A program made the position numbers and the translations under genes. Shown here piece by piece: positions 12,994 to 62,456 of a DNA stretch of 64,000 bases. The stretch's first letter is position 1. Every line of letters starts with the position of its first letter. The notes beneath the pieces are model-generated. The model worked only from the letters and a program-made list of their open reading frames with translations, was not told the origin of the DNA and ran no database searches. Source of the stretch: Spirochaetia bacterium (lineage in GTDB: Bacteria; Spirochaetota; Spirochaetia; SP-2023); NCBI GenBank assembly GCA_965225855.1, contig CBDDCK010000005.1:1888001-1952000 (forward strand), given 5' to 3'.

Positions 12994-13146
12994 TCCCTAT
13001 ACCTTGGCATTATCCCATTCTTGAGCCAGTACCTTTCCCCACACAGCATAGTGTATACAGCTCTTGCAATTTGTGCAATATAACCTTTGCCTTCCACCTT
13101 TAGCCGTCTAAAGCCTGTAATTGACCAAAGTTTATCTTGTTACAAA

Positions 13147-13364
13147 AACCTCTTGTTATGGATTAAGAAACTCTGTTGTTATGGATTAAGAAACTCTGTT
13201 GTTATGGATTAAGAAACTCTGTTGTTATGGATTAAGAAACTCTTTTATTGGGTATTAAGAAACTCTGTTGTTAGGCATTAAGAAACTCTATTATTGAGCA
13301 TTAAGAAACTCTGTTGTTAGGCATTAAGAAACTCTATTATTGAGCATTAAGAGACTCTCTTAAT
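13147..13364. repeat. 23-bp-period satellite downstream of lipoprotein 1 (9 ATTAAGA(A/G)ACTC anchors)
   Basis: Anchors at 13162, 13185, 13208, 13231, 13254, 13277, 13300, 13323, 13346, exactly 23 apart, with variable tails. Confidence 0.92.
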
Positions 13365-13380
13365 TTTTATGCCAAACAGC

Positions 13381-13416
13381 AAAAGCAGCCTTGATAATAA
13401 AATTTACCAAGGCTGC
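13381..13416 (-). terminator. Intrinsic terminator of lipoprotein 1
   Basis: Minus strand GCAGCCTTG-loop-CAAGGCTGC-TTTT. A related hairpin lies at 62172-62211 after lipoprotein 4. Confidence 0.65.
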
Positions 13417-13463
13417 AATTGGCCATAAGTAAAAGCCAACCAAGCATTGCTTACCGCATTTAC

Positions 13464-16400
13464 TTATGGGCTAAAATCACTGATGGTCAAGTCTTTCGGT
13501 GTATCTAAACCCGCCCAAGTACCAGTGCCAACGCTAAGCTTATCGTCTTGTTTACCAGGCGTATTCATATCAGGCTTGGCGTTAATAGCATTTTTATCGG
13601 CACCGGTAAGGTGAATCCAAATCTTTGTGCCATCGTTTTTAATGCGGTACTTATCTCTGATTATACCATAACCATTGGGCCCAGTGGGTTTGGCATCTGG
13701 AGTATAGGAATCTAAGGGTACGCCAGCTACCGTGATGGTTTGGATTTGGGCTTGGGTAGTACCATATAAGTTAGAACCTTGTAATTCTAAATAACCCAAG
13801 GCAGGTGTGTATTCACTTCTATCGCCTATTGCGGGTGGGTTACCACTAACGGCCAAGTCTTTAGGTGTATTTAAACCCGCCCAAGTACCAGTGCTAGTAA
13901 GCAACCCTTTTTTTAGACTATTGCTATCCATACCTGTCTTGCCATTCAGAGTAGTTTTATGTTGATCGGTAAGGTAAAGCCAAAGCGCTGTGCCATCGCT
14001 TTTCATACGGTACTTACCTTTTGCAAGACTGCTACTATCTGCCCCAGTGGCTGTGCCATCTGCAGTATAGGAACTTAAGGCTATGCCAGCTACCGTGATG
14101 GTTTGGATTTGCGCTTGGGTCGCCCTACCTAAGTGAGTACCTTGCAAGGTTAACAGCGCCGTGCCAACATGGTAGGTTGCACGGGTAATTGCGGGGTCGG
14201 GGTTACCACTAACGGCCAAGTCTTTGGCTGTATCTAAACCCGCCCAAGTACCAGAGCTAGTAAGCAACCCTTTTTTTAGACCATTGCTATCCATACCTGT
14301 CTTGCCATTCAGAGCAGCTTTATGTGGATCGGTAAGGTAAAGCCAAAGCGCTGTGCCAGCGCTATGCATGCGGTACTTACCTTTTGCAAGACCGCGACTA
14401 TCTGGCCCAGTGTCATCGTCATCTGCAGTATAGGAATCTAAAGCTACGCCATCTACCGTGATGGTTTGGATTTGCGCTTGGGTCGCACTACCTAAGAGAA
14501 TACCTTGTAAAGTTAACAGCGCCGTGCCAACATGGTAGCTTGCACTGGTAATTGCGGGGTTTCCACTAACGGTTAAGTCTTTGGCTGTATCTAAACCCGC
14601 CCAAGTACCAGTGCTAGTAAGCAACCCATCTTTTAGACCATTGCTATCCATACCTGTCTTGCCATTCAGAGTAGTTTTATGTCGATCGGTAAGGTAAAGC
14701 CAAATGGCTGTGCCATCGCTTTTAATACGGTACTTACCTTTTGCAAGACTGCTACTATCTGCCCCAGTGGCTGTGGCATCTGCAGTATAGGAATCTAAAG
14801 CTACGCCATCTACCACGATGGTTTGGATTTGCGCTTCTGTAGGACTTAAGTTAGAACCTTGTACAGTTAAGATAGCCGTGCCAACATGGTAGCTTGCACC
14901 GGTAATTGCGGGGTTACCACTAACGGTTAAGTCTTTGGCTGTATTTAAACCCGCCCAACTACCAGTGCCAACGCTAAGCAACCCGACTTTTCTACCATTG
15001 GTATCCATACCTGTCTTGCCATTCAGAGTAGTTTTATGTCGATCGGTAAGGTAAAGCCAAATGGCTGTGCCATCGCTTTTAATACGGTACTTACCTTTTG
15101 CAAGACTGCTACTATCTGCCCCAGTGGCTGTGGCATCTGCAGTATAGGAATCTAAAGCTACGCCATCTACCACGATAGTTTGGATTTGCGCTTCTGTAGG
15201 ACTTAAGTTAGAACCTTGTACAGTTAAGATAGCCGTGCCAACATGGTAGCTTGCACTGGTGATTTCGGGGTGTCCACTAACGGTTAAGTCTTTGGCTGTA
15301 TCTAAACCCGCCCAAGCACCAGTGCTAGTAAGCAACCCGACTTTTCTACCATTGGTATCCATACCTGTCTTGCCATTCAGAGTAGTTTTATGTTGATCGG
15401 TAAGGTAAAGCCAAATGGCTGTGCCATCGCTTTTAATACGGTACTTACCTTTTGCAAGACTGCTACTATCTGCCCCAGTGGCTGTGGTATCTGCAGTATA
15501 GGAACTTAAGGCTACACCATTTGTTCGGCTTCCTACCGTGATGGTTTGGATTTGCGCTTGGGTCGCACTACCTAAGTTAGAACCTTGTACAGTTAAGATA
15601 GCCGTGCCAACATGGTAGCTTGCACCGGTAATTTCGGGGTTTCCACTAACGGTTAAGTCTTTGGCTGTATTTAAACCCGCCCAACTACCAGTGCTAGTAA
15701 GCAACCCATCTTTTAGACCATTGGTATCCATACCTGTCTTGCCATTCAGAGTAGTTTTATGTCGATCGGTAAGGTAAAGCCAAATGGCTGTGCCATCGCT
15801 TTTAATACGGTACTTACCTTTTGCAAGACTGCTACTATCTGCCCCAGTGGCTGTGGTATCTGCAGTATAGGAACTTAAGGCTACACCATTTGTTCGGCTT
15901 CCTACCGTGATGGTTTGGATTTGCGCTTGGGTCGCACTACCTAAGTTAGAACCTTGTACAGTTAAGATAGCCGTGCCAACATGGTAGCTTGCACCGGTAA
16001 TTGCGGGGTCGGGGTTTCCACTAACGGTTAAGTCTTTGGCTGTATCTAAACCCGCCCAAGTACCAGTGCTAGTAAGCAACCCTTTTTTTAGACCATCGCT
16101 ACCCATACCGGGCTTGCCATTCAGAGTAGCTTTATGCTTGTCGGTAAGTTTCAGCCAAAGCTTTGTGCCATCGTTTGCAATACGGTACTTACCTTTTGCA
16201 AGATCGTTACTATTTACCCCAGTGGCATCGTCATCTGCAGTATAGGAACTGAAGGCTAGGCCAGCTACTACGATGGTTTGGATTTGCGCTTCTGTAGGAC
16301 TTAAGTCAGTACCTTGTACGGTTAACAGCGCCGTGCCAACATTGTAGATGGCGTTATTGATAGTCGGCTTAGACGGCCCAGAAGATCGATCATCGTCATC

Positions 16401-16475
16401 GGGTGGTGCGCAGGCCAAGGCCATAAAGGCCAGTAGCAATGCTAATGGCAATAAAAATAGTTTGTGCTTATACAT
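13464..16475 (-). CDS. Modular surface lipoprotein, copy 1: lipoprotein signal + 8 tandem ~120-aa type-A domains
   Basis: GGAGG RBS; MYKHKLFLLPLALLLAFMALA-C lipobox; eight P.IT.A.Y.VGTA.LT.QG...KGKYR...WAGL.T.KDL.VSG repeats with near-identical DNA. Confidence 0.85.
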   Translation of the reverse strand: MYKHKLFLLPLALLLAFMALACAPPDDDDRSSGPSKPTINNAIYNVGTALLTVQGTDLSPTEAQIQTIVVAGLAFSSYTADDDATGVNSNDLAKGKYRIANDGTKLWLKLTDKHKATLNGKPGMGSDGLKKGLLTSTGTWAGLDTAKDLTVSGNPDPAITGASYHVGTAILTVQGSNLGSATQAQIQTITVGSRTNGVALSSYTADTTATGADSSSLAKGKYRIKSDGTAIWLYLTDRHKTTLNGKTGMDTNGLKDGLLTSTGSWAGLNTAKDLTVSGNPEITGASYHVGTAILTVQGSNLGSATQAQIQTITVGSRTNGVALSSYTADTTATGADSSSLAKGKYRIKSDGTAIWLYLTDQHKTTLNGKTGMDTNGRKVGLLTSTGAWAGLDTAKDLTVSGHPEITSASYHVGTAILTVQGSNLSPTEAQIQTIVVDGVALDSYTADATATGADSSSLAKGKYRIKSDGTAIWLYLTDRHKTTLNGKTGMDTNGRKVGLLSVGTGSWAGLNTAKDLTVSGNPAITGASYHVGTAILTVQGSNLSPTEAQIQTIVVDGVALDSYTADATATGADSSSLAKGKYRIKSDGTAIWLYLTDRHKTTLNGKTGMDSNGLKDGLLTSTGTWAGLDTAKDLTVSGNPAITSASYHVGTALLTLQGILLGSATQAQIQTITVDGVALDSYTADDDDTGPDSRGLAKGKYRMHSAGTALWLYLTDPHKAALNGKTGMDSNGLKKGLLTSSGTWAGLDTAKDLAVSGNPDPAITRATYHVGTALLTLQGTHLGRATQAQIQTITVAGIALSSYTADGTATGADSSSLAKGKYRMKSDGTALWLYLTDQHKTTLNGKTGMDSNSLKKGLLTSTGTWAGLNTPKDLAVSGNPPAIGDRSEYTPALGYLELQGSNLYGTTQAQIQTITVAGVPLDSYTPDAKPTGPNGYGIIRDKYRIKNDGTKIWIHLTGADKNAINAKPDMNTPGKQDDKLSVGTGTWAGLDTPKDLTISDFSP

Positions 16476-16544
16476 AAGCAATACCTCCAACAAGGGATAA
16501 AGATTAACCAACCCATACGGGCTAGTATATAGCGGTCCTATATT

Positions 16545-16573
16545 ATTTTGTTGCTAGGGGGGTGTTGCGTCAA
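16545..16573 (-). promoter_or_regulatory. Putative sigma70 promoter of lipoprotein 1 with poly-C spacer
   Basis: TTGACG-caacaC6tagcaa(17 bp)-CAAAAT; same hexamers and spacing as the tRNA-Val promoter at 21786-21814. Confidence 0.55.
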
Positions 16574-16684
16574 GGCCCATACAAGCTTTTTGTAAGCTTT
16601 TTTTATGTTTTTGTGTGTGTTGGCACTTTTTTTGTGTCTTAGTGTTGTAAGGTGGTTAAAATCCATGCCAATCAAAAGGCTTAA

Positions 16685-16935
16685 GGCTATGCGATAGCAA
16701 GCACAACGCCAACCATGCCAACCATTGGGTGGTATGAATATATCCCAGTTGGGGTCATCGGTCCGCAATATATAGCCAGATATTGTGCAAGTCGTCTAAA
16801 ATGCCAGCATTGACGCTGTGGGCTAAGGTGAAAGCATCGGCATACTGGCCCTATTTGAGGTCGTCCCAGTTTTGGCTTTCCACGATGTTGTTGGGTTTTA
16901 GGAAGTCTATGGCCTGCTTATTTTTATGGTTTTTA
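16685..16935 (-). pseudogene. Relic of phage Mu gpF-like (minor head/head morphogenesis) gene
   Basis: QAIDFLKPNNIVESQNWDDLK*GQYADAFTLAHSVNAGILDDLH joined out of frame to LRTDDPNWDIFIPPNGW(HGW)RCAC, resembling MuF N-terminal AFTVA and C-terminal DDP.W...PPNGW.C.C motifs. Confidence 0.65.
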
Positions 16936-17250
16936 GTGCCTTGCTATGATACATCTCTCCGCCTTCGATCAAGGCCTTGATCCAAGGCGGATCAATACCT
17001 TACTCCAATGCGGATCAAGGCCTTGATCGAAGGGGGAAAGCTATATTGCACCAATGCGGAACAAGACCTTGATCCAAGGCGGAACAATACTTTATACCAA
17101 TGCGGAAAGCTATATTGTAGCAAGACAGGCGATGACTTGTAGATTCTCATCGGCAAACCAATTGCCCAATTGCGTTTGTATGGCTATTTCGGCTTGTTGC
17201 TTTGGGGTGGTTGCTTTGGGTTTGTTGGAAAATCCCTAGGTTGCCAATCA

Positions 17251-17293: not shown

Positions 17294-17528
17294 GAGACTG
17301 TGGCCGTTACCATGATATTTTAAAAGCATATTGTTGCCGACAACCCATATGCCGAAAAACAAAAATTTTTTACCTTTTTATTTTGGAAAGTAAGCCAATT
17401 TGTACCTTCCATTTGTGCCAAAAAATCCCGAGTTATCGCGCCTTATCCCGTTCAGTTATCATGTCCCGTATCACGAGCATAGTAGTCGTATAGTTCCCTA
17501 AAGGATTATTTCTAAATCTTGGTAAATA

Positions 17529-18617
17529 TCAGGCTCTATTGCAAATCATTAGCGCTAGAAAAACGGGCACACCAATAACCGTAAGCACAAGACCGGCAGG
17601 AATTTGTAAAGGCGCTAAGGCTACCCGTCCCAAATAGTCGGCTATGGCCACTAAAAGAGCTCCGGTTAAACCGCTAACAATCATGTGCATACCAACCCCA
17701 CAGCGCACAAAACGGCGAGCCATGTGCGGTGCAATAAGGCCAACAAAGCCCAAAGGCCCTACAGTGCATACCGCAAATGCAGCTAGCGCCGATGATAGGA
17801 AAATTAAAGATAGCCGGACTTTGGACGCATTTAAGCCCAAGCTGATGGCAATTTCATGGCCAAAACGCATTGCACTAATACAACGATAGCCCCAGAATAA
17901 AAACGGTATAATGGCCAAAAATAATAGAGATAGCAATTGAACATCTTGCCAATTGGCCGAATGCATCGAGCCAGATAACCATACCAAAGCCGATTGAACT
18001 TTTTCAATTCGGCCATAAGTCATCATAACGCTAATCAATGCAGAGATTAGCGTTGTAATGCCAATACCAGTAAGTAAAAAACGCATGGTATTTTTATCGC
18101 TGTGCTTAAAACTAAGAAATTGAATAATAAAAGTTATCGTTGCTGCGCCTAAAAATGCTGCAATAGGCGCATAAAAAATACGAATATCAGAAAATACCAC
18201 AAACAAAGAAATTACCGCTAGACTAGCCCCCTGACTCACCCCAACTAACGATGGGTCTGCCAGGGGATTGCCTGTAATACTTTGTAAGATTAAGCCAGAA
18301 ATGCTTAGAAAAAAACCGACATAAATGGCAGTCAGTATCCTTGGAAAACGAAACTCCCAAATAACCGTATGGATAATAGCACTGGGGGGATCGCCAAGTA
18401 GAGTATTGATAATCTGCGATAGGGGAATTGGCAGGGTACCGGTGCCTAGATTGAAAGCAACAATGCCTAGTAAATTTAAAAAGATGACTATGGCTACGGC
18501 CCAGGCTTTAGTATTCCACTGGAACGACACAGCCCCGCCAAAAATACGAACAAAACGGCGAGAAACTATAGGTTGTTGCTTTCGAGATTTGGGAGATATA
18601 AGAAAGGAGTCCATCAT
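17529..18617 (-). CDS. Iron-siderophore ABC permease (FecCD family)
   Basis: RFPRI, LQSITGNPLADPSLVGVSQGA, GPLGFVGLIAPHMAR. Confidence 0.92.
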   Translation of the reverse strand: MMDSFLISPKSRKQQPIVSRRFVRIFGGAVSFQWNTKAWAVAIVIFLNLLGIVAFNLGTGTLPIPLSQIINTLLGDPPSAIIHTVIWEFRFPRILTAIYVGFFLSISGLILQSITGNPLADPSLVGVSQGASLAVISLFVVFSDIRIFYAPIAAFLGAATITFIIQFLSFKHSDKNTMRFLLTGIGITTLISALISVMMTYGRIEKVQSALVWLSGSMHSANWQDVQLLSLLFLAIIPFLFWGYRCISAMRFGHEIAISLGLNASKVRLSLIFLSSALAAFAVCTVGPLGFVGLIAPHMARRFVRCGVGMHMIVSGLTGALLVAIADYLGRVALAPLQIPAGLVLTVIGVPVFLALMICNRA

Positions 18618-18629
18618 TATCAGTCGTTG

Positions 18630-19652: not shown

Positions 19653-19674
19653 CAATACAGAATGGCTTACGAAA

Positions 19675-20466
19675 TTAAGTGGGAATAAGGGGGATGCAAA
19701 CCGGCTTCCTAGTTTGGGGATCCGAGATGATTTGAGCATCTAGGCCAAATACTGTTTTTAGATTTTCTGGGGTAATAGTGGACATGGGAGTACCTGCAGC
19801 AATTAATTGGCCATTTTTCATCATAATCACGGTGTCGGCAAAAGAGGCTGCAATATTTAACTCATGCAAAACCACTAACAAGATACGATTCTGCTCATGG
19901 GCAATTTTTCTAAGTAGCGTCATTACATCTATTTGAACTTTTAGGTCTAAAAAGGTGGTTGGCTCATCGAGGACAATAATATCGGTATCTTGGGCCAGCG
20001 CCATGGCAATCCAAACACGTTGGCGTTGCCCACCCGACAAAGAAGAAACAGACAAATTAGCAAATTCTGCGGTTTCGGTGGCGTGCATAGCCTGTTCTAC
20101 AGCCACGCTATCTTCTGCTGACCATTGCTGCAAGAGGCTTTGGTGTGGAAAGCGCCCATACGAAATCAATTCGTAAACAGTTAAACCTTCCGGAGCGATG
20201 GGCCCTTGGGGCAATAATGCCATTCGTTTGGCTAATTCTTTATTGGGTATGGTATGCACAGACTGCTCATCAATACTTACTTGTCCCCGGCTAAGTTTTA
20301 AAATACGGACAACAGATTTTAATAATGTAGATTTACCGCAGCCGTTGGCACCAATTAGTGCGGTAATCTCTCCGGCTCTGGCAGTAAAGGAAACCCCCTT
20401 TACCACCGGAGTTTTGTCATAAGCGACACATATATCCTGAATATTTAGAGCTTTAATTGTTTGCAT
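19675..20466 (-). CDS. Iron-siderophore ABC ATP-binding protein (FecE/FhuC-like)
   Basis: GANGCGKST, LSGGQRQR, LDEPTTFLD, VLHELN. Confidence 0.93.
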   Translation of the reverse strand: MQTIKALNIQDICVAYDKTPVVKGVSFTARAGEITALIGANGCGKSTLLKSVVRILKLSRGQVSIDEQSVHTIPNKELAKRMALLPQGPIAPEGLTVYELISYGRFPHQSLLQQWSAEDSVAVEQAMHATETAEFANLSVSSLSGGQRQRVWIAMALAQDTDIIVLDEPTTFLDLKVQIDVMTLLRKIAHEQNRILLVVLHELNIAASFADTVIMMKNGQLIAAGTPMSTITPENLKTVFGLDAQIISDPQTRKPVCIPLIPT

Positions 20467-44189: not shown

Positions 44190-44975
44190 GCCACAATAGC
44201 CCCCACCCCCAAGCACCACCCCACCGTCCCCACCCAATAACTGCCCCAGCCCCAACCAACAATCCAAAGCAACAAACCGAAATAGCCATACAAACGCAAT
44301 TGGGCAATTGGTTTGCCGATGCCAATCTACAAGTCATCGCCTGTCTTGCTGCAATATAGCTTTCCGCCTTGGTATAAAGTATTGTTCCCACTTGGATCAA
44401 GGTCTTGTTCCACATTGGTGCAATATAACTTTCCAACTTGGTGCAATACATCTTTCCGCATTGGAGTAAGGTATTGATCGAAGGCGGAGAGATGTATCAT
44501 AGCAAGGCACTAAAAACCATAAAAATAAGCAGGCCATAGACTTGCTAAAACCCAACAACATCGTAGAAAGCCAAAACTGGGACGACCTCAAATAGGGGCA
44601 GTATGCCGATGCTTTGACCTTAGCCCACAGCGTCAATGCTGGCATTTTAGACGACTTGCACAATATCTGGCTATATATTGCGGGCCTATGACCCCAACTG
44701 GGATATATTGATACCACCCAATGGTTGGCATGGTTGGGTTGGCACGGTTGGCATGGTTGGCGTTGCGCCTGCTATCGCATACCCTCAAGCCTTTTGATTG
44801 GCATGGATTTTGAACCACCTTACAACACTAACACACAAAAAAAGTGCCCAAACATAAAAAAACTTACAAAAAGCTTGTATAGGCCTTGACGCAACACCCC
44901 CCCTAGCAAAATGGGGATTTACAGACTAGCCCGTATGGGTTGGTTAATCTTTATCCATTGTTGGAGGTATTGCTT
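44190..44975 (+). repeat. Conserved upstream cassette element, copy 2 (C-run cluster, 23-mer satellite, MuF relic 44511-44785, poly-C promoter 44886-44912)
   Basis: High identity to 59340-60159 and to the reverse complement of 16490-17200. Confidence 0.9.
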
Positions 44976-47444
44976 ATGTATAAGCTCAAACTACTTTTAT
45001 TGCCAGTAGCCTGGCTACTGGCCTTTATGGCCTTGGCCTGCGCCCCACCCGATGACGATGATCGATCTTCTGGGCCATCTTCTGGGCCGTCTATCAATAA
45101 TGCCATCTACGACTTTGCTACGGCTCTGTTAACCGTACAAGGTACTGACTTAAGTCCTACAGAAGCCCAAATCCAAACCATCGTAGTAGATGGCATAGCT
45201 TTAGATTCCTATACTGCAGATGACCCAGCCACTGGGCCAGATAGTAACGGTCTTGCAAAAGGTAAGTACCGTATTAAAAGCGATGGCACAGCGATTTGGC
45301 TTAGACTTACCGATCGACATAAAGCTGTTCTTGAGGCCAAGGTGGGTAGCAATGGTAGAAAAGATGGGTTGCTTAGCGTTGGCTCTGGTGCTTGGGCGGG
45401 TTTAAATACACCTAAAGACTTGGACGTTAGTAATATACCCGAAAATAAGCAGTCTAAAGTATCCGATGACAATCAGCCATCTAAGCAAGCTGAAGAAGAC
45501 GAACAAGACGAACAAGCTGAAGAAGAGTCGCCTAAGCAAACTGAAGTCGAACAAGCTGAAGAAGTCGAACAAGCTGAAGATAAGCAGTCGCATGAACTAC
45601 CCGAAGCTGCAATTACCCGTGCAACCTACCATGTTGGCACGGCGCTGTTAACCTTGCAAGGTACTCACTTAAGTGCTACAACTGCGACCCAAGCCCAAAT
45701 CCAAACCATTACGGTAGATGGCTTAGCCTTAAGTTCCTATACTGCAGATGGCACAGCCACTGGGCCAGATAGTCGTGGTCTTGCAAAAGGTAAATACCGC
45801 ATTGCAAACGCTGGCACAGCGCTTTGGCTTTACCTTACCGATCAACATAAAACTACTCTGAATGGCAAGACAGGTATGGATAGCAATGGTCTAAGAGAAG
45901 GGTTGCTTAGCGTTGGCACTGGTACTTGGGCGGGTTTAGATACAGCCAAAGACTTGGCCGTTAGTGGAAACCCCGAAGCTACAATTACCGGTGCAAGCTA
46001 CAATGTTGGCACGGCTCTGCTAACTGTACAAGGTACTCACTTAGGTAGTGCGACCCAAGCCCAAATCCAAACCATCACGGTAGATGGCTTAGCCTTAAGT
46101 TCCTATACTGCAGATGGCACAGCCACTGGGCCAGATAGTCGCAGTCTTGCAAAAGGTAAGTACCGCCTGCATAGCGCTGGCACAGCGCTTTGGCTGAAAC
46201 TTACCGATCGACATAAAACTACTCTGAATGGCAAGACAGGTATGGATAGCAATGGTCTAAAAGATGGGTTGCTTAGCGTTGGCACTGGTGCTTGGGCGGG
46301 TTTAAATACAGCCAAAGCCTTGGCCGTTAGTGGAAACCCTGCAATTACCAGTGCAAGCTACCATGTTGGCACGGCGCTGCTAACTGTACAAGGTACTCAC
46401 TTAGGTAGTGCGACCCAAGCCCAAATCCAAACTATCACGGTAGATGGCTTAGCCTTAAGTTCCTATACTGCAGATGGCACAGCTACTGGGCCAGATAGTC
46501 GTGGTCTTGCAAAAGGTAAGTACCGTATGAAAAGCGATGGCACAGCGCTTTGGCTTTACCTTACCGATACCGATAAAGATGCTCTGAATGGCAAAACAGG
46601 TATGGATAGCAATGGTCTAAAAGATGGGTTACTTAGCGTTGGCACTGGTGCTTGGGCGGGTTTAAATACAGCCAAAGACTTAACCGTTAGTGGAAACCCC
46701 GCACCCGCAATTACCAGTGCAACCTACAATGCTGCTACAGGTAAATTAGTGATTACAGGCACTAATTTACCAAAAGCAGTTACAGGCTGGGACTTCACCA
46801 AATTGAGGCTTGTCGCAGGTAATGGTCGTAATAGTCAACCATTATTATGGCACAGACCAACCGGTATAAACAGAGCCACAGGTTCTGCAGCAAGTGCAAC
46901 AAGCTTAACGATTACTTTAAAGGGTAGTGAACACAGTAAAGCCAATAGTATATTGGTTAAGAATGGTGAAAGTGATGATGCTGGTGCATACAACCTGGAA
47001 GCAGCAGCAGGATTTGCAGGTGGTAGCGCAGAAGACACAAGCAATAACCCGATTACTGTCAGTGGCTACAAAAGCTATCTCCACAGCTTAAACTACTTTG
47101 CTAATAATGGCAAGTTATTGATTCAGGGTAAAAATTTACCGACAACAATTGCAGACTGGGACTTTAGCAAATTGACGCTTGTATCCGGTGATGGTAGTAA
47201 GGAATACACATTACCCCAGCACGCAACCGCAGATGCAAATACAGCCACAGGTTCTGATGCAAATATAGGCGGCGTAATAATTACTTTAAGCGGTACTGTA
47301 AAAGCCAAAGCCGAGAAGATACTGGTTAAGAATGGTGAAAGTGATGATGCTGGTGCATACAACCTTAAAGCAGCAGCAGGATTTGTAATTGGTAGTCCAG
47401 AAGACCCAACCACTTCAATTAGAGTTTTTGGTGTTAGTGAGTAG
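44976..47444 (+). CDS. Modular surface lipoprotein, copy 2: A - acidic linker - A - A - A - B - B
   Basis: GGAGG RBS; MYKLKLLLLPVAWLLAFMALA-C; four type-A domains as in copy 1; two type-B domains (PAITSATYNAATGKLVITGTNL...WDF.KL...GAYNLEAAAGF). Confidence 0.85.
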   Translation: MYKLKLLLLPVAWLLAFMALACAPPDDDDRSSGPSSGPSINNAIYDFATALLTVQGTDLSPTEAQIQTIVVDGIALDSYTADDPATGPDSNGLAKGKYRIKSDGTAIWLRLTDRHKAVLEAKVGSNGRKDGLLSVGSGAWAGLNTPKDLDVSNIPENKQSKVSDDNQPSKQAEEDEQDEQAEEESPKQTEVEQAEEVEQAEDKQSHELPEAAITRATYHVGTALLTLQGTHLSATTATQAQIQTITVDGLALSSYTADGTATGPDSRGLAKGKYRIANAGTALWLYLTDQHKTTLNGKTGMDSNGLREGLLSVGTGTWAGLDTAKDLAVSGNPEATITGASYNVGTALLTVQGTHLGSATQAQIQTITVDGLALSSYTADGTATGPDSRSLAKGKYRLHSAGTALWLKLTDRHKTTLNGKTGMDSNGLKDGLLSVGTGAWAGLNTAKALAVSGNPAITSASYHVGTALLTVQGTHLGSATQAQIQTITVDGLALSSYTADGTATGPDSRGLAKGKYRMKSDGTALWLYLTDTDKDALNGKTGMDSNGLKDGLLSVGTGAWAGLNTAKDLTVSGNPAPAITSATYNAATGKLVITGTNLPKAVTGWDFTKLRLVAGNGRNSQPLLWHRPTGINRATGSAASATSLTITLKGSEHSKANSILVKNGESDDAGAYNLEAAAGFAGGSAEDTSNNPITVSGYKSYLHSLNYFANNGKLLIQGKNLPTTIADWDFSKLTLVSGDGSKEYTLPQHATADANTATGSDANIGGVIITLSGTVKAKAEKILVKNGESDDAGAYNLKAAAGFVIGSPEDPTTSIRVFGVSE

Positions 47445-47513
47445 GGTTTGGTTATTGCGGTAAGCAATGCTCTTGGTTGGCTTATTGTTCGCTCTTAGAG
47501 AATAGGCTTAGTC

Positions 47514-47558
47514 GGCAAGCAAGGTTTGGGCTTTAGACCAAGCTTTGCTTGCCTTTTT
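47514..47558 (+). terminator. Intrinsic terminator after lipoprotein 2
   Basis: GGCAAGCAAGGTTTGG-loop-CCAAGCTTTGCTTGCC-TTTTT. Confidence 0.75.
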
Positions 47559-47634
47559 GGTGGCACTATGGCTAGTATTCCACTAGCAAGCGGGTTGGTG
47601 GATTTTTGGGTTTGGTAAATATTAGCACTTATGG

Positions 47635-52514: not shown

Positions 52515-52928
52515 AGAAGAGCCCCGACTAAATAGTGATAAGAAACCCGACTAAATACCCAGAAGAGCCGCAACTAAATAGGGATAAGAAACCCGGCTAA
52601 ATACCCAGAAGAGCCGCAGCTAAATAGTGATAAGAAACCCGACTAAATACCCATAAGAGCCGCAACTAAATAGTGATAAGAAACCCGACTAAATACCCAG
52701 AAGAGCCGCAACTAAACAGGGATAAGAAACCCGACTAAATACCCAGAAGAGCCGCAACTAAACAGGGATAAGAAACCCGACTAAATACCCAGAAGAGCCC
52801 CGACTAAACAGGGATAAGAAACCCGACTAAATACCCAGAAGAGCCGCAACTAAATAGTGATAAGAAACCCGACTAAATACCCAGAAGAGCCGCAACTAAA
52901 TAGTGATAAGAAACCCGACTAAATACCC
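52515..52928. repeat. Tandem array: 9 x 46 bp (two 23-bp subunits)
   Basis: Consensus AGAAGAGCCGCAACTAAATAGTG-ATAAGAAACCCGACTAAATACCC, units every 46 bp from 52515; degenerate short homologue at about 59243-59300. Confidence 0.95.
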
Positions 52929-53108
52929 AGAAGCCCATATAGCCCAAGCTAAAGTACCCTAACACAAAAAAAGTGCCAAAAACATAAAAAAAGTTTGTAA
53001 AAAGCCCTATATGGGTCTTGACGCAACACCCCCCCTAGCAAAATGGGACGCTATACACTAACCCGTATGGGTTTTGTCAATCTCAATCCATTTTTGGAGG
53101 TATTGCTT

Positions 53109-54449
53109 ATGTATAAGCTGAAACTATTTTTATTGCCTGTAGCCTTGCTACTGGGCTTTATGGCCTTTGCCTGCACCCCACCCGATGACGATGCGCCGTC
53201 TTCTGGTCCGTCTAAGTCGCCTAAGGAGGTACTCGAAACCGAACAAGTCGAAGATAAGCAGTCTGAAGTATCCGATGACAATAAGCCATCTAAGCAACCT
53301 AAAGACAAACAAGTCGAAGATGAGTCGCGTAAGCTACCTAAAGCCTCAATTACCAGTGCAACCTACGATGTTGGCACGGCTCTGTTAACCGTACAAGGTA
53401 CTCACTTAGGTAGTGCGCAACAAGCGCAAATCCAAACCATCAAAGTATATGACCTAGTTTTAAGTTCCTATACTGCAGATGAGGATGCCACTGGGGCAGA
53501 TAGTCGCAGTCTTGCAAAAGGTAAGTACCGCATCAAAAGAGATGGCACAGCCATTTGGCTGAAACTTACCGATCGACATAAAGCTACTCTAAATGGTAAG
53601 ACAGGTATGGATAGCAATGGTAGAAAAGACGCTAAGCTTAGCGTTGCCTCTGGTACTGGTACTTGGGCGGGTTTAGATACAGCCAAAGACTTGGCCGTTA
53701 GTGGAAACCCACCCGCAATTACCCGTGCAACCTACAATGCTATTACAGGCGTGTTATTGATTACAGGTACTAATTTACCAAAAGTAGTGGATAGCTGGGA
53801 CTTTAGCAAATTGAAGTTTGTCGCAGGTAATGGTGATAAGAGTCCCGCATTAAAAGCGCACGAAAACGCAGGTGAAAACACAGCCACAGGTTCTGCAGCC
53901 AGTGCAACAAGCTTAACGATTACTTTAACGGGTACTGAACAACTCAAAGCCTATAATATATTGGTTGTGAATGGTCGTAGTGATGATGATGGTGCATACA
54001 ACCTTGAAGCAACAGCAGGATTTGCCGGTGGTAGGGCAGCAGACACAAGCAATAACCCTATTAACGTTAGTGGGTACGACGTAAACCGGCTCTCCTACGC
54101 AAAATACTATTCTAATAGTAGCCTTTTAATTATTAATGGTAGCGGTTTACCGACAACAGTTGCAGACTGGGACTTTAGCAAATTGACGCTTGTATCCGGT
54201 GATGGTAGTAAGAAATTCAAATTACCCAAGCACTCAACTTCAGGTGAAGACACAGCCACAGCTAATCTTTTCTTTAGTAACGCCATATATATTCGTTTAA
54301 GCGGTAGTGTAAAAGCCAAAGCCAATGCTATACTGGTTCAGAATGGTGTTAGTGATGATGGTGGTGCATACAATTTGGAAGCAGCAGCAGGATTTGTAAC
54401 GGGTAGCGCAGCAGACCGAACAACTAGTATTAAAGTTAGTGGTTGGTAA
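53109..54449 (+). CDS. Modular surface lipoprotein, copy 3: linker - A - B - B
   Basis: GGAGG RBS; MYKLKLFLLPVALLLGFMAFA-C; one A and two B domains. Confidence 0.85.
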   Translation: MYKLKLFLLPVALLLGFMAFACTPPDDDAPSSGPSKSPKEVLETEQVEDKQSEVSDDNKPSKQPKDKQVEDESRKLPKASITSATYDVGTALLTVQGTHLGSAQQAQIQTIKVYDLVLSSYTADEDATGADSRSLAKGKYRIKRDGTAIWLKLTDRHKATLNGKTGMDSNGRKDAKLSVASGTGTWAGLDTAKDLAVSGNPPAITRATYNAITGVLLITGTNLPKVVDSWDFSKLKFVAGNGDKSPALKAHENAGENTATGSAASATSLTITLTGTEQLKAYNILVVNGRSDDDGAYNLEATAGFAGGRAADTSNNPINVSGYDVNRLSYAKYYSNSSLLIINGSGLPTTVADWDFSKLTLVSGDGSKKFKLPKHSTSGEDTATANLFFSNAIYIRLSGSVKAKANAILVQNGVSDDGGAYNLEAAAGFVTGSAADRTTSIKVSGW

Positions 54450-54562
54450 GTAGGGTTTGGTTGTTGCAAACGCTTGCATTGGCCAATTATAGCCTTGGTA
54501 TAAGGCTACAAACTTTTTTAGTAATAGCTTTGAATAATTATTACCAGAACGTTGCCATAACA

Positions 54563-54635
54563 ATTAAGAGAGTCTCTTAATGCCCAACAAGAGATTCTCT
54601 TAATAAGAGACCTTCTTAATAACTAACAAGAATTT
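54563..54635. repeat. ATTAAGAGA..TCTTAAT satellite downstream of lipoprotein 3
   Basis: ATTAAGAGAGTCTCTTAAT at 54563 followed by related units. Confidence 0.8.
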
Positions 54636-54853
54636 TTTGTAACAAGATAAACTTTGGCCAAGCCTTGCTTGCCTTTTTGGTGGGCAGTATGGCTAGCAAT
54701 AGTCGTTTCATTTTGCGTGCAAATTTACAAATGTACAGGCATAGAGCGCAGCCTAGAAAACTTTGCCTATGGCTTTTTGCGTTTAATGGAGATTTTAGGA
54801 TTAGGACACAGTTCAAAAACACAGAATTGCATAAATTACTAATTACAAAAATA

Positions 54854-55630: not shown

Positions 55631-55668
55631 AATCTTTGTTCCTAAATTGGGTTATAGCTGATTGATAG

Positions 55669-56862
55669 CTATTGTATGTGCTTTTTATTTCGCAATAAGA
55701 CATACAAAAAGAATGGTGCGCCAATTGCCGCCGTAATAATGCCAATTGGTATTTCTGCGGGTGGAAACATAGTGCGTGCCAGAATATCCGAAAATAAGAC
55801 TAGGCAGCCGCCCAAGACCATGCTATTGGGCAATAAAAAACGATGGTCGGGCCCGGCAAGTAAGCGAATCACATGGGGTACTACTATGCCCACAAAAGCA
55901 ATCGGCCCGGCAATCGAGACACAAATCGCAACAGCTAATGCAGTTAGGACTACGCACCAACGGTTGAATTGGGTGGTATCAATTCCCATGTGGCGCGCTT
56001 CGGCTTCACCCAGTAGTAAAGCGTTTAGCCCGCGCGCCAAACGAGTGATAGCCAAACATACAAAAAGCAAAACTAAAGCGATAGGTATGTATTTCCAGCT
56101 GATACCGCCCAAACTGCCTAAAGACCAAAACGCAATATCGCGCAATTGTGCATCCGTTGCAATGTAGGTCATTGTGCCAGAAATGGAGCTCACAATTGCA
56201 TTGATAGCTATGCCTGCAAGCAACATGGTTACTACAGAGACGCCGCGTTCGGTGATAGATATGGTATAAATAAATACGGTGACTGTTACTCCTCCCACAA
56301 ACGCAAATACGGGAATGAGCCAGAAGCCCAAGATTTTTTGCGCAGCCGTAAACCAAACGCCAGCCAAAACGATGGCTATCGCCGCCATGACTGAAGCCCC
56401 AGCCGATACGCCGATTAAACCGGGGTCTGCCAGCGGATTGCGAAACATTCCCTGCATTACCGCCCCAGAAGAAGCTAAACCAGCCCCGATTAAAAAGGCG
56501 GCTATCATTCTGGGGAAACGGATTGTCCAAACGATTAAGTTTTCGGTTGTGTCGGCGCGGCTGGGTGTACCTAGCAAGTTGTGCGCGATAATTTCCCAAA
56601 CGCGAAAAAAATCCACTTGATATGCACCAATGACCATATCAAAAATAGCTAGCAAACAAGCTAAAGCAATAAAAATAGGTGGCAAGATTCGCCGGAAAAA
56701 GCGGTGGTGCAATTTCATTCCCAAAGGATTATATGTTTTGGGATTTTGCACTTTGGAATCTTGAGCCTCGTAATTTTTTGTTGGATAATTTAGGGATTCA
56801 CTATCCATTTGGTTGTCTATAGTGGGGTTTTCTATAGCGGGGATCAGTGGTTTACTACTCAT
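55669..56862 (-). CDS. hmuU: Haem ABC transporter permease
   Basis: MQGMFRNPLADPGLIGVSAGA, MLLAGIAINA, FWSLGSLG, LLGEAEARHMG, GPDHRFLLP. True start may be downstream. Confidence 0.85.
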   Translation of the reverse strand: MSSKPLIPAIENPTIDNQMDSESLNYPTKNYEAQDSKVQNPKTYNPLGMKLHHRFFRRILPPIFIALACLLAIFDMVIGAYQVDFFRVWEIIAHNLLGTPSRADTTENLIVWTIRFPRMIAAFLIGAGLASSGAVMQGMFRNPLADPGLIGVSAGASVMAAIAIVLAGVWFTAAQKILGFWLIPVFAFVGGVTVTVFIYTISITERGVSVVTMLLAGIAINAIVSSISGTMTYIATDAQLRDIAFWSLGSLGGISWKYIPIALVLLFVCLAITRLARGLNALLLGEAEARHMGIDTTQFNRWCVVLTALAVAICVSIAGPIAFVGIVVPHVIRLLAGPDHRFLLPNSMVLGGCLVLFSDILARTMFPPAEIPIGIITAAIGAPFFLYVLLRNKKHIQ

Positions 56863-56975
56863 ATTGCAAAGCCTCTTTCATATCAAAAGCCAAAAAGAAT
56901 ATAAAAAATATTAAAGAACAAGCACAAATATCAAGCAAGATACAAAGTAACCTGCTTGATAATCGCACAAATCTT

Positions 56976-57914
56976 TTATTTGTCTGTACCTAAAGATGAT
57001 TCGGGAGCGTAGGCGCGCGCTGGCAATTGGGCTTTTTTATCCTCGCCATGCAATTTGCCAATCATGTAGTTTACCGCCTGTGGGGTACGCGGCCCCATCG
57101 CATAAACCATGCCCGAAACAAACATGACTTTATCATTTTTATAGGCGCGGGTTTCTCTTAGCCCTGGCAAATCGGCTATGGTTTTGCCTGCTTCATCAAG
57201 CCGTTTTTGTGAAAAGGTATAAAACAAAATAACATCAGGGTCTTTGGCCAGCAGAGCTTCTTTTTGCGCCTCAGTACTGCGGGGTACTCCTAAAAATACA
57301 TTTTCTCCCTTAGCCCAGCCCAAGGTTAAAATAGAATCACCCGTGCCGCTGGCAAATAGTTTGTCTTTATAATAATAGACTAAGGCATATTTTACCGGTG
57401 TGAGCTGGCTGGCTGCGGCAGTAACCGCGGCAAAATCCGCCTCTACATCTTTGGCGATTTTATCCGCTTTGTCTGCTTCACCCAAAAACTCACCGATCAA
57501 GCGAATGTTGTGCGCTACATCGCTTTGGTTTTCGTTAATTTTGGTGCGCAATAACTTTATGTCAGGTGCTTGTTGTAAAACTTCTACAGTTTGCTCCGGA
57601 CCCATTTTACCATTACCAATAACATGCGTTGGCTTTAAAGTTAAAATTCCTTCTGCTGGTGCGCGGTGCACATAGCCCGCGATAGGATAGTCCTTTTGCA
57701 AGCGCGCTGGGTAGGTACTGGTGCGACCAACACCCACTATTTCCTTATCTTTGCCCAGCAACGCTACCACTTCGGCAGTGCCCGAACCTAAGACGACTAT
57801 GCGCGTTTCGTCAATCATAGCTTGGGGTTGTTTAGAATTACCCCTAGCGATCAGCAATGCTGAGACTATGGATAGTAAAAAGAGTGCAAAGGCACTTATA
57901 GCAAATTTTCTCAT
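56976..57914 (-). CDS. hmuT: Haem ABC transporter substrate-binding protein
   Basis: RIVVLG...AEVV.LLG, VG..TSTYP, GY (haem-ligand Tyr)...EGIL.LKP, MGPRTP; AGGAG RBS. Confidence 0.8.
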   Translation of the reverse strand: MRKFAISAFALFLLSIVSALLIARGNSKQPQAMIDETRIVVLGSGTAEVVALLGKDKEIVGVGRTSTYPARLQKDYPIAGYVHRAPAEGILTLKPTHVIGNGKMGPEQTVEVLQQAPDIKLLRTKINENQSDVAHNIRLIGEFLGEADKADKIAKDVEADFAAVTAAASQLTPVKYALVYYYKDKLFASGTGDSILTLGWAKGENVFLGVPRSTEAQKEALLAKDPDVILFYTFSQKRLDEAGKTIADLPGLRETRAYKNDKVMFVSGMVYAMGPRTPQAVNYMIGKLHGEDKKAQLPARAYAPESSLGTDK

Positions 57915-58929: not shown

Positions 58930-59329
58930 TTACTTGGTATTTGGCTGAACGTGATTAATAAAGTACTAGCCCAGTAGTCAATGCTAAGGGAACCAACCCG
59001 GGCGTGGGTTTAAGCCCCGATAGCAGCCAAAAGTTAGACTAGATAGCCCAAAGGCTGGACAAATTATTACAAAAGCGCAATTCCCAAATTTAGAGAGCGA
59101 AGGCAAAGGCATTTTGGAAGTGATGGCACGAATGCACGCCAGCGCAATGCACTTGGCTTACGGCATGATAGACTACCATGCGCAGCAACAAATCCAAAAC
59201 ACTATATGGCCAAAGTTGTTTGCGCAAAGTGCTTTCGGTATATACCCAGAAGAGCCCGACTAAATACGGAGAGAGCTTCGGCTAAATACGGGAAGCCAAT
59301 ATAGCCAAAACTATTGATCATTGCATGGA

Positions 59330-60159
59330 AACAACCAAAGGCCAACCAAACACCACCCCAACCCCACCCAATAACTGCCCCAGCCCCAACCAACAAGCCA
59401 AAGCAACAAGCCGAAATAGCCATACAAACGCACATACAAACGCAATTGGGCAATTGGGCAATTGGGCAATTGCCCAATTGCGTTTGCCGATGCGAATCTA
59501 CAAGTCATCGCCTGTCTTACCACAATACACCTTTCCGCCTTGGTATAAAGTCATCGCCTGTCTTGCTGCAATATAGCTTTCCGCCTTGGTATAAAGTATT
59601 GTTCCGCATTGGTATAAAGTCATCGCCCGTCTTGCTACAATATAGCTTTCCGCATTGGAGTAAGGTATTGATCGAAGGCGGAGAGATGTATCATAGCAAG
59701 GCACTAAAAACCATAAAAATAAGCAGGCCATAGACTTCCTAAAACGCAACAACATCGTAAAAAGCCAAAACTGGGACGACCTCAAATAGGGCCAGTATGC
59801 CGATGCTTTGACCTTAGCCCACAGCGTCAATGCTGGCATTTTAGACGACTTGCACAATATCTGGCTATATATTGCGGGCCGATGACCCCAACTGCGATAT
59901 ATTGATACCGCCCAATGGTTGGCATGGTTGGGTTGGCACGGTTGGCATAGTTGGCGTTGCGCCTGCTATCGCATACCCCCAAGCCTTTTGATTGGCATGG
60001 ATTTTGAACCACCTTACAACACTAAGACACAAAAAAAGCACAAAAAACTTACAAAAAGCTTATATAGGCCTTGACGCAACACCCCCCTAGCAAAATGGGG
60101 ATTTACAGACTAGCCCGTATGGGTTGGTTAATCTTTATCCATTGTTGGAGGTATTGCTT
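59330..60159 (+). repeat. Conserved upstream cassette element, copy 4 (C-run cluster, CAATTGGG microsatellite, 23-mer satellite 59492-59675, MuF relic 59705-59980, promoter 60071-60096)
   Basis: High identity to 44190-44975. Confidence 0.9.
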
Positions 60160-62133
60160 ATGTATAAGCTCAAACTATTTTTATTGCCTGTAGCCTGGCT
60201 ACTGGCCTTTATGGCCTTGGCCTGCGCCCCACCCGATGACGATGCACCATCTTCTGGGCCGTCTGGGCCGACTATCAATAACGCTATCTACGACTTTGCT
60301 ACGGCTCTGTTAACCGTACAAGGTACTGACTTAAGTCCTACCAGTGTGAAACAAGCGCAAATCCAAACTATCAGGGTAGGAAGCCGAACAAATGGTGTAG
60401 CCTTCAGTGCCTATACTGCAGATGCCAAACCCACTGGGGTAAATAGTAACGGTCTTGAACAAGGTAAGTACCGTATTAAAAGCGATGGCACAAAGCTTTG
60501 GCTGAAACTTAAAGATGAACATAAAGCTGCTCTTGAGGCCAAGGTGGGTAGCAATGGTCTAAAAAAAGGGTTGCTTAGCGTTGGCACTGGTGCTTGGGCG
60601 GGTTTAAATATAGCCAAAGACTTAACCGTTAGGAATATACCCGATAAGCCATCTGAACAAGCCGAACAAGCTGAACAAGCTGAAGAAGAGTCGCCTAAGC
60701 AATCTAAAGACGAACAAGCCGAACAAGCTGAACAAGCTGAAGAGCAGTCGCCTAAGCAATCTAAAGACGAACAAGTCGAACAAGCTGAACAAGCTGAAGA
60801 AGAGTCGCCTAAGCAATCTAAAGACGAACAAGCCGAACAAGCTGAACAAGCTGAAGAGCAGTCGCCTAAGCAATCTAAAGACGAACAAGCCGAACAAGTC
60901 GAACAAGCCGAAGAGCAGTCGCCTAAGCAAGCTAAAGACGAACAAGACGAACAAGCCGAACAAGTCGAACAAGCTGAAGAAGAGTCGCCTGAACTACCCG
61001 ACCCCGCAATTACCCGTGTAACCTACAATGTTATTTCAGGCGTGTTAGAGATTACAGGTACTAATTTACCAGCAGCAGTTGCAGACTGGGACTTTAGCAA
61101 ATTGACGCTTGTATCCGGTGATGGTACTAGATACACATTACCCCGGCACTCAACTTTAAGTATAAACGTAGTCACAGGTTCTACATCAAGGATTTTAAGT
61201 AGAAACACAGCCACAGGTTCTAGGGCAAGTGCAACAGAATTATTTATTCAGTTAAGGGGTAGTGTAAAAGCGGAAGCCGAGAAGATACTGGTTAACGATG
61301 GTGATAGTGATGCTAATGGTGCATACAACCTGGAAGCAGCAGCAGGCTTTGCAGGTGGTAGCGCAGCAGACACAACCAACCCTATTACCGTTAGTGGGCA
61401 TACAGCCAGAATCATCAGTGCAACCTACGATGCTAATACAGGCGTGTTATTGATTGCAGGTATCAGGTTACCGAAAACAGTTGCAGGATGGGACTTTAGC
61501 AAATTGACACTTGTATCCGGTGATGGTACTAGATACACATTACCCGAGCACGCAACTGCAGGTGAAAACACAGCCACAGGTTCTAGGGCATTTATAGACA
61601 GCATAACTATTACTTTAAGCGGTAGTGTAAAAGCGGAAGCCGAGAAGATACTGGTTAAGACTGGTGATAGTGATGATAATGGTGCATACAACCTGGAAGC
61701 AGCAGCAGAATTTGTAACTGGTAGTCCAGAAGACACAAGCAACCCGATTACCGTTAGTGGCTACGTAAGCCTGCTCGACTCCGTATTATACAGAGCTACT
61801 AGAGGCTTGTTATATATTAGTGGTAGCAGGTTACCGACAACAGTTGCAGACTGGAACTTTAGCAAATTGACGATTGTATCCGGTGATGGTAGTAAGAGAT
61901 ACACATTACCCGAGCACGCAACTGCAGGCACAAACAAAGCCACAGGTTCTAGTGCAAGTGCAACAAGCTTAATTATTACTTTAAGCGGTAATGTAAAAGC
62001 CAAAGTCAATGCTATACTGGTTAAGGCTGGTTTTGGTGATGCTAATGGTGCATACAACCTGGAAGCAGCAGCAGAATTTGTACCTGGTAGTCCAGAAGAC
62101 CCAACCACTGGTATTCAAGTTGTAAATTATTAA
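60160..62133 (+). CDS. Modular surface lipoprotein, copy 4: A - long EQA linker - B - B - B
   Basis: GGAGG RBS; MYKLKLFLLPVAWLLAFMALA-C; one A domain, tandem EQAEQAEQAEEESPKQSKD linker, three B domains. Confidence 0.85.
   Translation: MYKLKLFLLPVAWLLAFMALACAPPDDDAPSSGPSGPTINNAIYDFATALLTVQGTDLSPTSVKQAQIQTIRVGSRTNGVAFSAYTADAKPTGVNSNGLEQGKYRIKSDGTKLWLKLKDEHKAALEAKVGSNGLKKGLLSVGTGAWAGLNIAKDLTVRNIPDKPSEQAEQAEQAEEESPKQSKDEQAEQAEQAEEQSPKQSKDEQVEQAEQAEEESPKQSKDEQAEQAEQAEEQSPKQSKDEQAEQVEQAEEQSPKQAKDEQDEQAEQVEQAEEESPELPDPAITRVTYNVISGVLEITGTNLPAAVADWDFSKLTLVSGDGTRYTLPRHSTLSINVVTGSTSRILSRNTATGSRASATELFIQLRGSVKAEAEKILVNDGDSDANGAYNLEAAAGFAGGSAADTTNPITVSGHTARIISATYDANTGVLLIAGIRLPKTVAGWDFSKLTLVSGDGTRYTLPEHATAGENTATGSRAFIDSITITLSGSVKAEAEKILVKTGDSDDNGAYNLEAAAEFVTGSPEDTSNPITVSGYVSLLDSVLYRATRGLLYISGSRLPTTVADWNFSKLTIVSGDGSKRYTLPEHATAGTNKATGSSASATSLIITLSGNVKAKVNAILVKAGFGDANGAYNLEAAAEFVPGSPEDPTTGIQVVNY
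60655..60990 (+). repeat. Coding VNTR, ~57-bp unit with nested 9-bp GAACAAGCY repeats
   Basis: EQAEQAEQAEE(E/Q)SPKQSKD repeated 5-6 times. Confidence 0.9.
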
Positions 62134-62222
62134 GTAGGGTTTGGTTGTTGCAACCCTTGCATTGGTTGGCCAAAAGCAGCCTTGGTAAGTTTTTTTATCA
62201 TGGCTGCTTTTACCAATTATAG

Positions 62223-62456
62223 CCTTGGTATAAAGTATTGTTCCGCATTGGTGCAATACATCTTTCCGCCTTAGATCAAGGCCTTGATCCAAGGCGGAAA
62301 GCTATATCATAGCAAGGCACTAAAAACCATAAAAATAAGCAAGCCAATGTCAATAAGAATTTACCAAAGGTTGCCATAACAATTAAGAGAGTCTCTTAAT
62401 GCCCAATAATAGAGTGTCTTAATACCCAACAAGAAAGTTTCTTGTTGGGTATTAAG
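62223..62456. repeat. Partial copy of the upstream element followed by an ATTAAGA satellite
   Basis: 62223-62341 matches the 23-mers and TATCATAGCAAGGCACTAAAAACCATAAAAATAAGCA of 59584-59725. ATTAAG anchors at 62382 and 62451 are 3 x 23 apart. Confidence 0.85.

Follow-up and report, generated by a model that had tools for sequence, protein, structure and literature searches.

Large families of variable surface antigens are usually thought to have grown by tandem duplication or by the activity of insertion sequences (IS). In the vlsE and vmp genes of Borrelia and in tprK of Treponema, gene conversion exchanges patches of sequence between surface-protein paralogues, with pilE or vlsE as precedents for exchange triggered by runs of G, and in the multigene lipoprotein families vlp of Mycoplasma hyorhinis and vlhA of M. 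gallisepticum each copy has its own promoter and is switched through a run within it. In Treponema pallidum tp0126 and the tpr genes, and in Neisseria porA, a mononucleotide run between the -35 and -10 boxes sets the spacer, of which 17 bp is the optimal length (PMC7864442). In Xanthomonas, mobile insertion cassettes (MICs) hold genes of transcription activator-like effectors (TALEs) between the ends of TnXax1, of the Tn3 family, and 45% of the TALEs keep these ends (PMC4337579). The B3-type transposable phages leave a 6-bp target duplication as their scar, and mini-Mu elements are presented as engineered tools (PMC8705779). Here we describe a family of lipoprotein genes of a Spirochaetia bacterium (assembly GCA_965225855.1), four of which lie in the stretch of 64,000 nucleotides that we call the window (contig CBDDCK010000005.1, positions 1,888,001 to 1,952,000 of the forward strand; plain coordinates refer to the window, whereas a prefix such as C4 or C5 names a contig). 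The family has 106 full-length copies in the genome, of which 40 carry ends of a resident transposable prophage. Our reading, to which we give a probability of roughly 0.7, is that the genes have likely been spread as mini-phage elements, have likely been reshuffled by gene conversion, and are predicted to be switched copy by copy through a C-run in each promoter.

A search of the 2.71-Mb genome with profiles for the signal peptide and for the two repeats, A and B, retrieved 120 family reading frames. The signal peptide is present in 116 of them and at least three domains are present in 106, the full-length copies, which amount to 218 kb or 8.0% of the genome DNA and are spread over all five contigs in both orientations; all have intact open reading frames (ORFs), against about ten short or broken ones. 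A promoter-like sequence, a ribosome-binding site (RBS) and the signal peptide occur in each of the 106, and so does the lipobox (MALAC in 74, MAFAC in 29, MAFSC in two and IALAC in one); judged by the type II signal peptide with its lipobox cysteine, the members are bacterial lipoproteins, with a predicted location at the surface. The usual order is signal peptide (SP), A, an acidic linker (L), none to four further A and two to four B, with 20 distinct domain strings in all and SP-A-L-A-B-B as the commonest (34 copies). Four divergent members (C5:353763, C5:571748, C5:209202 and C4:210671) have other promoters and a mixed order of A and B, and are candidates for ancestral, non-mobile genes. 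The same queries found the A domain in none of 30 other genomes, and neither A nor B in three congeners (89-92% complete).

A preliminary description of the window, made from its letters alone, had named an assembly collapse as one way in which the repeats could be an artefact. This does not apply, since no two coding sequences (CDSs) of the family are identical and the contigs of run X1 connect unique flanks to cassette edges with 0 differences, the cassettes being covered, in sum, about 50-85 times as deeply as unique DNA. Two other samples gave runs in which depth over the cassettes is likewise far above that of unique DNA; the expansion thus reaches beyond one sample. The same description had proposed a dispersed, recombining, promoter-bearing family of surface lipoproteins with mobile features, and had looked to further copies as a check; both were borne out genome-wide.

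A 36-kb prophage at C5:1.258-1.294 Mb, found through a search for intact MuF, has genes for terminase, portal, MuF, a repressor, a MuA-type transposase (phrog_310, E 2e-70), MuB (phrog_296) and tail. By its MuA and MuB, its TG...CA ends, its length of about 36 kb and its head and tail genes, it is classed from sequence as a transposable phage of the Mu/B3 type; two further phage right ends, with different flanks, lie at contig ends. When the ends of this prophage were sought in the genome, 31 of the 35 left-end matches fell upstream of a family gene, at a distance of 2 kb or less, and 27 of the 32 right-end matches fell downstream of one, both pointing inward. Intact left tips flank 30 of the full genes (window copy 1 among them) and intact right tips 27; both are present at 17 cassettes and at least one at 40. 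A perfect 6-bp target duplication surrounds five of the 17 two-ended cassettes (chance per pair 0.0015, P about 5e-11). This scar was seen at the mini-elements and not at the C5 prophage, the left tip of which is damaged.

An empty site was sought at the cassette C5:800480-803962, a locus fixed beforehand, in four runs from two other samples. In run X6, from another sample and another study, a contig joins both flanks (locus positions 474 to 3964) and skips 3489 bases, the sum of the 3483-bp element and a single hexamer, which makes it an exact empty site; no contig spanning this site was found in the other three runs. The variation between strains that the preliminary description had thought worth checking is present. 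Three intact elements were compared with the prophage, which they match at the ends and in satellites only, and none of them contains a transposase; the only MuA gene of the assembly is that of the prophage. That the window holds no recombinase, transposase or reverse transcriptase, as had been reported, is true but misleading, given that the genome encodes the MuA-type transposase, RecA and two tyrosine recombinases; a reverse transcriptase was not found in this 94% complete genome. We are confident that a part of the family was transposed by means of phage ends. The cassettes would be mini-phage elements that are not autonomous and have a host gene as their cargo, although neither of these ends was found at 66 of the 106, and the prophage transposase, supplied in trans, would move them. 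The idea of a mobile system thus stands as to its mobile features, and what it had missed is their source in the ends of a resident transposable prophage.

Several observations weigh against this account. Neither main tip was found at 66 of the 106 cassettes, window copies 2 to 4 among them, and their edges are ragged, many lying at a C-rich tract. No target duplication is present at 12 of the 17 two-ended cassettes (a left tip lying inside a satellite accounts for four of these), and hexamer matches across cassettes are at the level of chance (three, null mean 1.2). The empty site is a single contig of depth 2 with 52 letters on its short side, at one locus tested of five, and the one transposase gene of the assembly sits in a prophage copy whose left tip is damaged and whose baseplate gene contains a satellite. 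The 66 tipless copies would be eroded or recombined descendants, the ends being worn away by recombination between copies and by adjacent deletions; routes of spread other than the phage ends are also possible. A second sharp terminus, which starts with TGTAAC, points into ten cassette trailers (e.g., C5:93018 and C5:1708243) and has a look-alike at C4:30410 of the congener G001; neither a partner end nor a duplication was found for it at the ten cassettes. The segment C5:2007116-2013500 holds a cassette gene, an iron-type ATP-binding cassette (ABC) operon, an orphan trailer and a phage right end, possibly as a larger composite element, and at C5:2030137-2031000 a 680-bp phage left end is followed by a cassette-type frame with no lipoprotein gene before the end of the contig.

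Empty sites in the three congeners (G001-G003) were set aside, the genomes being too diverged and rearranged for this use; the two G001 stretches that were examined, a short-chain dehydrogenase pair followed by different DNA, say little. No phage ends were recognised at the flanks of 14 G001 lipoprotein loci, which have satellites and gene pieces in common, and ends of the G002 type occur once each in G002 and once in G003. G002 also has a related transposable prophage of about 28 kb (C1:229792-257556) with similar ends and with no match to the terminase, portal and major head genes of the source genome.

The cassettes resemble the MICs of Xanthomonas in that a passenger lies between transposon ends with no transposase of its own, some copies have target duplications and a cognate transposase is found elsewhere; the cargo in both is a diversifying family of repeat proteins, and the ends are kept by a part of the copies only (45% of the TALEs, 38% here). 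They differ in having the ends of a transposable phage instead of those of an IS or Tn3 element, in reaching 106 copies per genome and in a lipoprotein cargo with a predicted slippage promoter. Judged by these ends, which are the prophage's, the cassettes are not MICs in the strict sense of IS or Tn3-type ends. With the B3-type prophages and the laboratory mini-Mu and mini-D3112 elements (PMC8705779) they share TG...CA ends, repeated subterminal motifs, the 6-bp duplication and a MuA/MuB helper, whereas the elements described here are natural, measure about 2.4-3.7 kb, have a left end of about 90-260 bp and a right end of 50-70 bp, and take a host surface gene aboard. No natural mini-phage carrying a surface-protein family was found in the literature searched, which was available in part and included few subscription journals.

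Exchange between the copies left clear traces. Pairwise identity in one module (promoter, first A, last A, first B or last B) shows almost no correlation with that in another (rho -0.02 to 0.18), and genes that match at 75-90% in their other parts can share a single module at 100% identity. Among 104 cassettes (the two most divergent genes were omitted), 71 contain exact tracts of at least 200 bp, 147 in number and up to 1764 bp long, which span promoters, linkers and trailers. Copy 2 of the window has exact tracts of 491, 430 and 358 bp, each matching a different locus, and a last B that is 98% identical to a fourth. A database protein from a contig outside the assembly appears to be a further chimera, its first 250 residues being identical to those of C5:1495437 and the rest 63-94% alike. 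The ends of the tracts are not enriched at domain borders, with 23% of the 218 in-gene ends within 10 amino acids of a border against 20% at random, and the exchange is therefore patchwise and not a swapping of domains. We regard patchwise homologous exchange between the copies as very probable; an exchange of the RecA type, likely gene conversion, would reshuffle them, and changes in repeat number would come from unequal exchange between tandem repeats.

The preliminary description had put forward another model, a dedicated swapping of whole domains among fixed, expression-competent loci, with G-runs as the trigger. The 20 domain strings are in line with it, and of the 77 motifs of four G3 runs in the genome 34 are found upstream of family genes at a distance of up to 1.3 kb, 33 of them antisense. 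However, the tract ends just described ignore the domain borders, the empty site argues that the loci are not fixed, all copies have promoters so that there is no single expression site with silent donors, and most cassettes have no G-runs. Whole-domain exchange is largely refuted by these results, and we consider the model highly improbable. Segmental exchange between paralogues, as in vlsE and tprK, is found here too, but there is neither a single expression site nor an array of promoterless donors, and promoters and flanks are exchanged as well; as every copy has a promoter, this is not a vlsE-type system.

As in porA and tp0126, a homopolymer lies between the -35 and -10 boxes, 104 of the 106 genes having, by consensus match, a C-run preceded by a TTGAC[G/T] box and followed by CA[A/C]AAT. 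In length, the spacer is 15 bp (C7) in 84 of these promoters, 14 bp (C6) in 17, 16 bp (C8) in one and 17 bp in two, one of which has C9 and the other, that of window copy 1, a 3-bp insertion. In 771 ordinary upstream regions of the genome, spacers are most frequent at 16 and 17 bp (38 and 40, where 10 would be expected) and scarce at 15 bp (5). Since 101 of the 104 family spacers are thus shorter, at 14-15 bp, than the 16-17 bp found genome-wide, most copies are predicted to be off, and the loci that had been called expression-competent are probably not so as they stand. C5:803129, C5:1508714 and window copy 1 are predicted from their promoters to be on. Runs of at least seven C or G number 139 in the genome, of which 87 are family promoters. 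We incline towards slippage switching of these promoters, in which a slip of one to three bases in the C-run would turn one copy on. In comparison with porA, tp0126, vlp and vlhA, the run is short and nearly uniform (C6-C7), the loci are about 100, dispersed and mobile instead of few or clustered, and the switching is a prediction.

Against slippage it counts that the run is so short (C6/C7), that MutS and MutL are encoded in the genome, that the lone C8 and the lone C9 could be assembly errors, that no C-run indel is among the differences listed against the assembled short-read contigs of other runs, and that the -10 box was assigned by consensus alone. An alternative keeps the phage-end spread and the mosaicism and dispenses with phase variation: the short spacer, together with an inverted repeat (CCCTA-N6-TAGGG) found around the -10 box in many copies, would form the site of a shared regulator, and all copies would be co-expressed as a mixed adhesin coat. 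The striking uniformity of C7 (84 of 104), the palindrome, which is kept in both promoter types, the presence of mismatch repair and the 106 intact ORFs out of 106 would all fit such a site. It would fit less well that the length of the spacer varies only in the C-run, and that divergent members with interrupted C-runs have spacers of 16-17 bp and better -10 boxes. A parallel family in the congener G001 also speaks against it. This is a dispersed family of GLUG-motif lipoproteins, unrelated to the present one and with at least about 16 loci, in which, at 17 of 17 starts (14 stretches), a 7-bp unit repeated 5, 6 or 8 times directly after the ATG puts the gene out of frame. It is likely, from its sequence, a translational default-off repertoire, and its logic would be analogous to that of the C-run promoters described here. 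On balance, we find the shared regulator unlikely and prefer the switching of single copies.

To see what the cassettes encode, the A-B-B part of copy 3 was modelled with 13 aligned paralogues (mean predicted local distance difference test score, pLDDT, 78.5), which gave three beta-rich, sandwich-like domains of about 120 residues each. The best Foldseek matches of the model are tandem immunoglobulin (Ig) proteins such as titin, with 9-16% identity and low whole-chain TM-scores, and the A and B repeats are predicted to be Ig-like. In a search with copy 3, 78 of 92 matches are giant DUF4347, DUF4214 or RTX proteins of Proteobacteria (27-36% identity) from outside the family, among which B has relatives of about 30% identity; there, the repeats lie inside secreted proteins of 800-2200 amino acids, whereas here three to nine repeats follow a lipoprotein signal. 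A word-seeded search with A-A returned 90 matches, every one within the family and none below 55% identity (85 on contigs with the lengths of this genome's contigs and five on others), and found no outside relatives of A. The two repeats may be distant kin, because one set of unnamed Atlas clusters and of SWM-repeat clusters is hit by either of them, with weak recognition scores, and the B profile weakly matches A regions. No credible Pfam family was found for any of the four window proteins; matches of copies 1 and 2 to CrtC, DUF6679 and others were rejected, as no stretch passes alone and the single domains have no match.

The ratio of non-synonymous to synonymous substitution (dN/dS), a rough measure among recombining paralogues and to that extent a weak point of our reading, is 0.83 for A, 1.28 (0.96-1.79) for the first B and 1.68 (codon bootstrap 1.27-2.19) for the last B. 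In the last B, variable and fixed positions alternate along the predicted strands, a pattern that fits one exposed variable face in the model. The protein would be a lipid-anchored stalk made of A, with the distal B as a variable binding or antigenic tip. These data also bear on whether the family serves the cell at all. A mini-phage could have captured a lipoprotein gene and multiplied it as a selfish parasite, the short spacer limiting its cost and the diversity being a by-product of recombination, and the failure to find A and B in the three congeners, which implies a recent and local expansion, would agree with this. A parasite is hard to reconcile with 106 full-length ORFs as opposed to about ten short or broken ones, with a lipobox kept in every full copy, and with a dN/dS above 1 that is confined to the distal domain, where the variable positions follow the predicted strands. 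We therefore hold the hitch-hiker to be quite improbable.

The window itself shows how the parts are arranged. Its four paralogues share promoter, RBS (GGAGG) and a signal peptide ending in LAC or FAC, as first described, and their domain strings (A8; A-L-A3-B2; L-A-B2; A-L-B3) are exactly those that had been claimed; the real start codon is an ATG at least 12 codons behind the first listed start, 3' of GGAGG. Copy 1 (13464..16475, reverse strand, 1003 amino acids, SP-A8) is one of just two full-length copies of the family without B domains. Its upstream frame (16476..17225, reverse strand) contains a 23-mer array (16970-17107), a MuF-like relic (16679-16913), an A-tract and the promoter (16545..16573, reverse strand, TTGACG-17 bp-CAAAAT), where C6 and the 3-bp insertion together give the canonical spacer that is predicted to be on. 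Beyond it lies the phage left end (17368..17473, reverse strand), with its tip TG at 17473, which points into copy 1 and has about 91% identity to the left end of the prophage. The trailer of copy 1 (13120..13463, reverse strand) includes an ATTAAGA 23-mer satellite (13146-13358), and no phage right end was found in it.

The other copies are on the forward strand. The upstream frame of copy 2 (44200..44975) is composed of an antisense G-run cluster (44200-44253), a 23-mer array (44362-44464), a MuF-like relic (44566-44775) and the promoter (44886..44912, TTGACG-15 bp-CAAAAT with C7), which is predicted to be off or weak; no phage tip was found in this frame. The CDS (44976..47444, 822 amino acids, SP-A-L-A3-B2) is followed by a trailer (47445..47604). 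Copy 3 (53109..54449, 446 amino acids, SP-L-A-B2) is preceded by a satellite of 46-mers, i.e., 2 x 23 (52515..52933), and by a predicted promoter with a 15-bp spacer (C7; 53018..53044). Its trailer (54450..54788) has an ATTAAGA satellite (54552-54661) and a 60-bp piece (54730-54788) that is 84% identical to a gene of the prophage tail region. Two joined pieces of the prophage baseplate region (58987..59188, 87% and 92% identity) form the outer edge of the frame of copy 4. This frame (59189..60159) holds an antisense G-run cluster (59356-59387), a 23-mer array (59502-59670) and a MuF-like relic, with the predicted promoter, of 14-bp spacer (C6), at 60071-60096. The CDS (60160..62133, 657 amino acids, SP-A-L-B3) has a long acidic linker with 57-bp repeats, and its trailer (62134..62445) repeats the 23-mer module of the upstream frame in direct orientation (62222-62346) and also has an ATTAAGA satellite (62371-62443).

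The near-identity of the upstream non-coding DNA in three copies was confirmed, the frames of copies 1, 2 and 4 (about 730-790 bp) being 93-96% identical over ungapped columns, and the ATTAAGA 23-mer satellite is likewise at three of the four, 3' of copies 1, 3 and 4 and not of copy 2. Of the conserved frame that had been drawn for all four, the promoter is found at each copy and the 23-mer array at copies 1, 2 and 4. Copy 3 departs from it, having only the final 150 bp or so in common (88%) and its 46-mer array in place of the rest, and the antisense G-run clusters (four G3 runs with spacers of 1-12 nucleotides) are present at copies 2 and 4 and absent at copy 1. The part read as a dead MuF fragment gave faint signals: the two intact MuF proteins have their best window matches in the three frames, with N- and C-terminal motifs collinear, at E values of only 0.006-0.17, and neither of the two relic pieces scanned matches MuF in Pfam. 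The frame stretch could be such a fragment, on this weak similarity.

The satellites are not a specific part of the cassettes, as had been thought, and are instead intergenic repeats found genome-wide, with 189 arrays of period 22-24 or 45-47, of which 111 lie within 1.5 kb of a family gene. Several unrelated satellite families share the period of 22-23 or 46 bases, for example in the window at 11472-11561, 13146-13358 and 52515-52933. In one prophage copy, at C5:1292524-1292877, a 23-mer array of 350 bp stands in place of about 480 bp of a baseplate gene, which is intact in the other copy (C4:335614-336666); this suggests that the 23-mer arrays arise at sites of breakage or deletion. No matching report on satellites of 23 or 46 nucleotides was found in the literature searched, within the same coverage of sources as above. 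Among the neighbouring genes of the window, iron ABC operons adjoin copies 1 and 3 (17529-21512 and 54854-57914). A 16S rRNA gene at 9040-10590 is directly followed by an ORF with an Nmad2 domain (10850-11476) and a satellite (11472-11561), and not by a 23S gene; the rRNA operon is split.

Taken further, the cassettes could be a domesticated phage-transposition system, in which the prophage copies a cassette to about 100 sites, recombination builds Ig-like tips that are then selected, and a slip in one promoter picks the tip that is shown; we offer this fuller scheme tentatively, at somewhat less than even odds. By analogy, the unrelated default-off family of the congener suggests that libraries of this kind may have arisen repeatedly in the genus. 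From a single surface gene, a natural mini-phage appears to have made 8% of this genome, and has left scars of transposition and an empty site, which offers a concrete and testable route by which a prophage creates an antigenic or adhesin repertoire for its host. If this reading is true, a large set of interchangeable coats, spread by a phage, is likely at the disposal of the cell.

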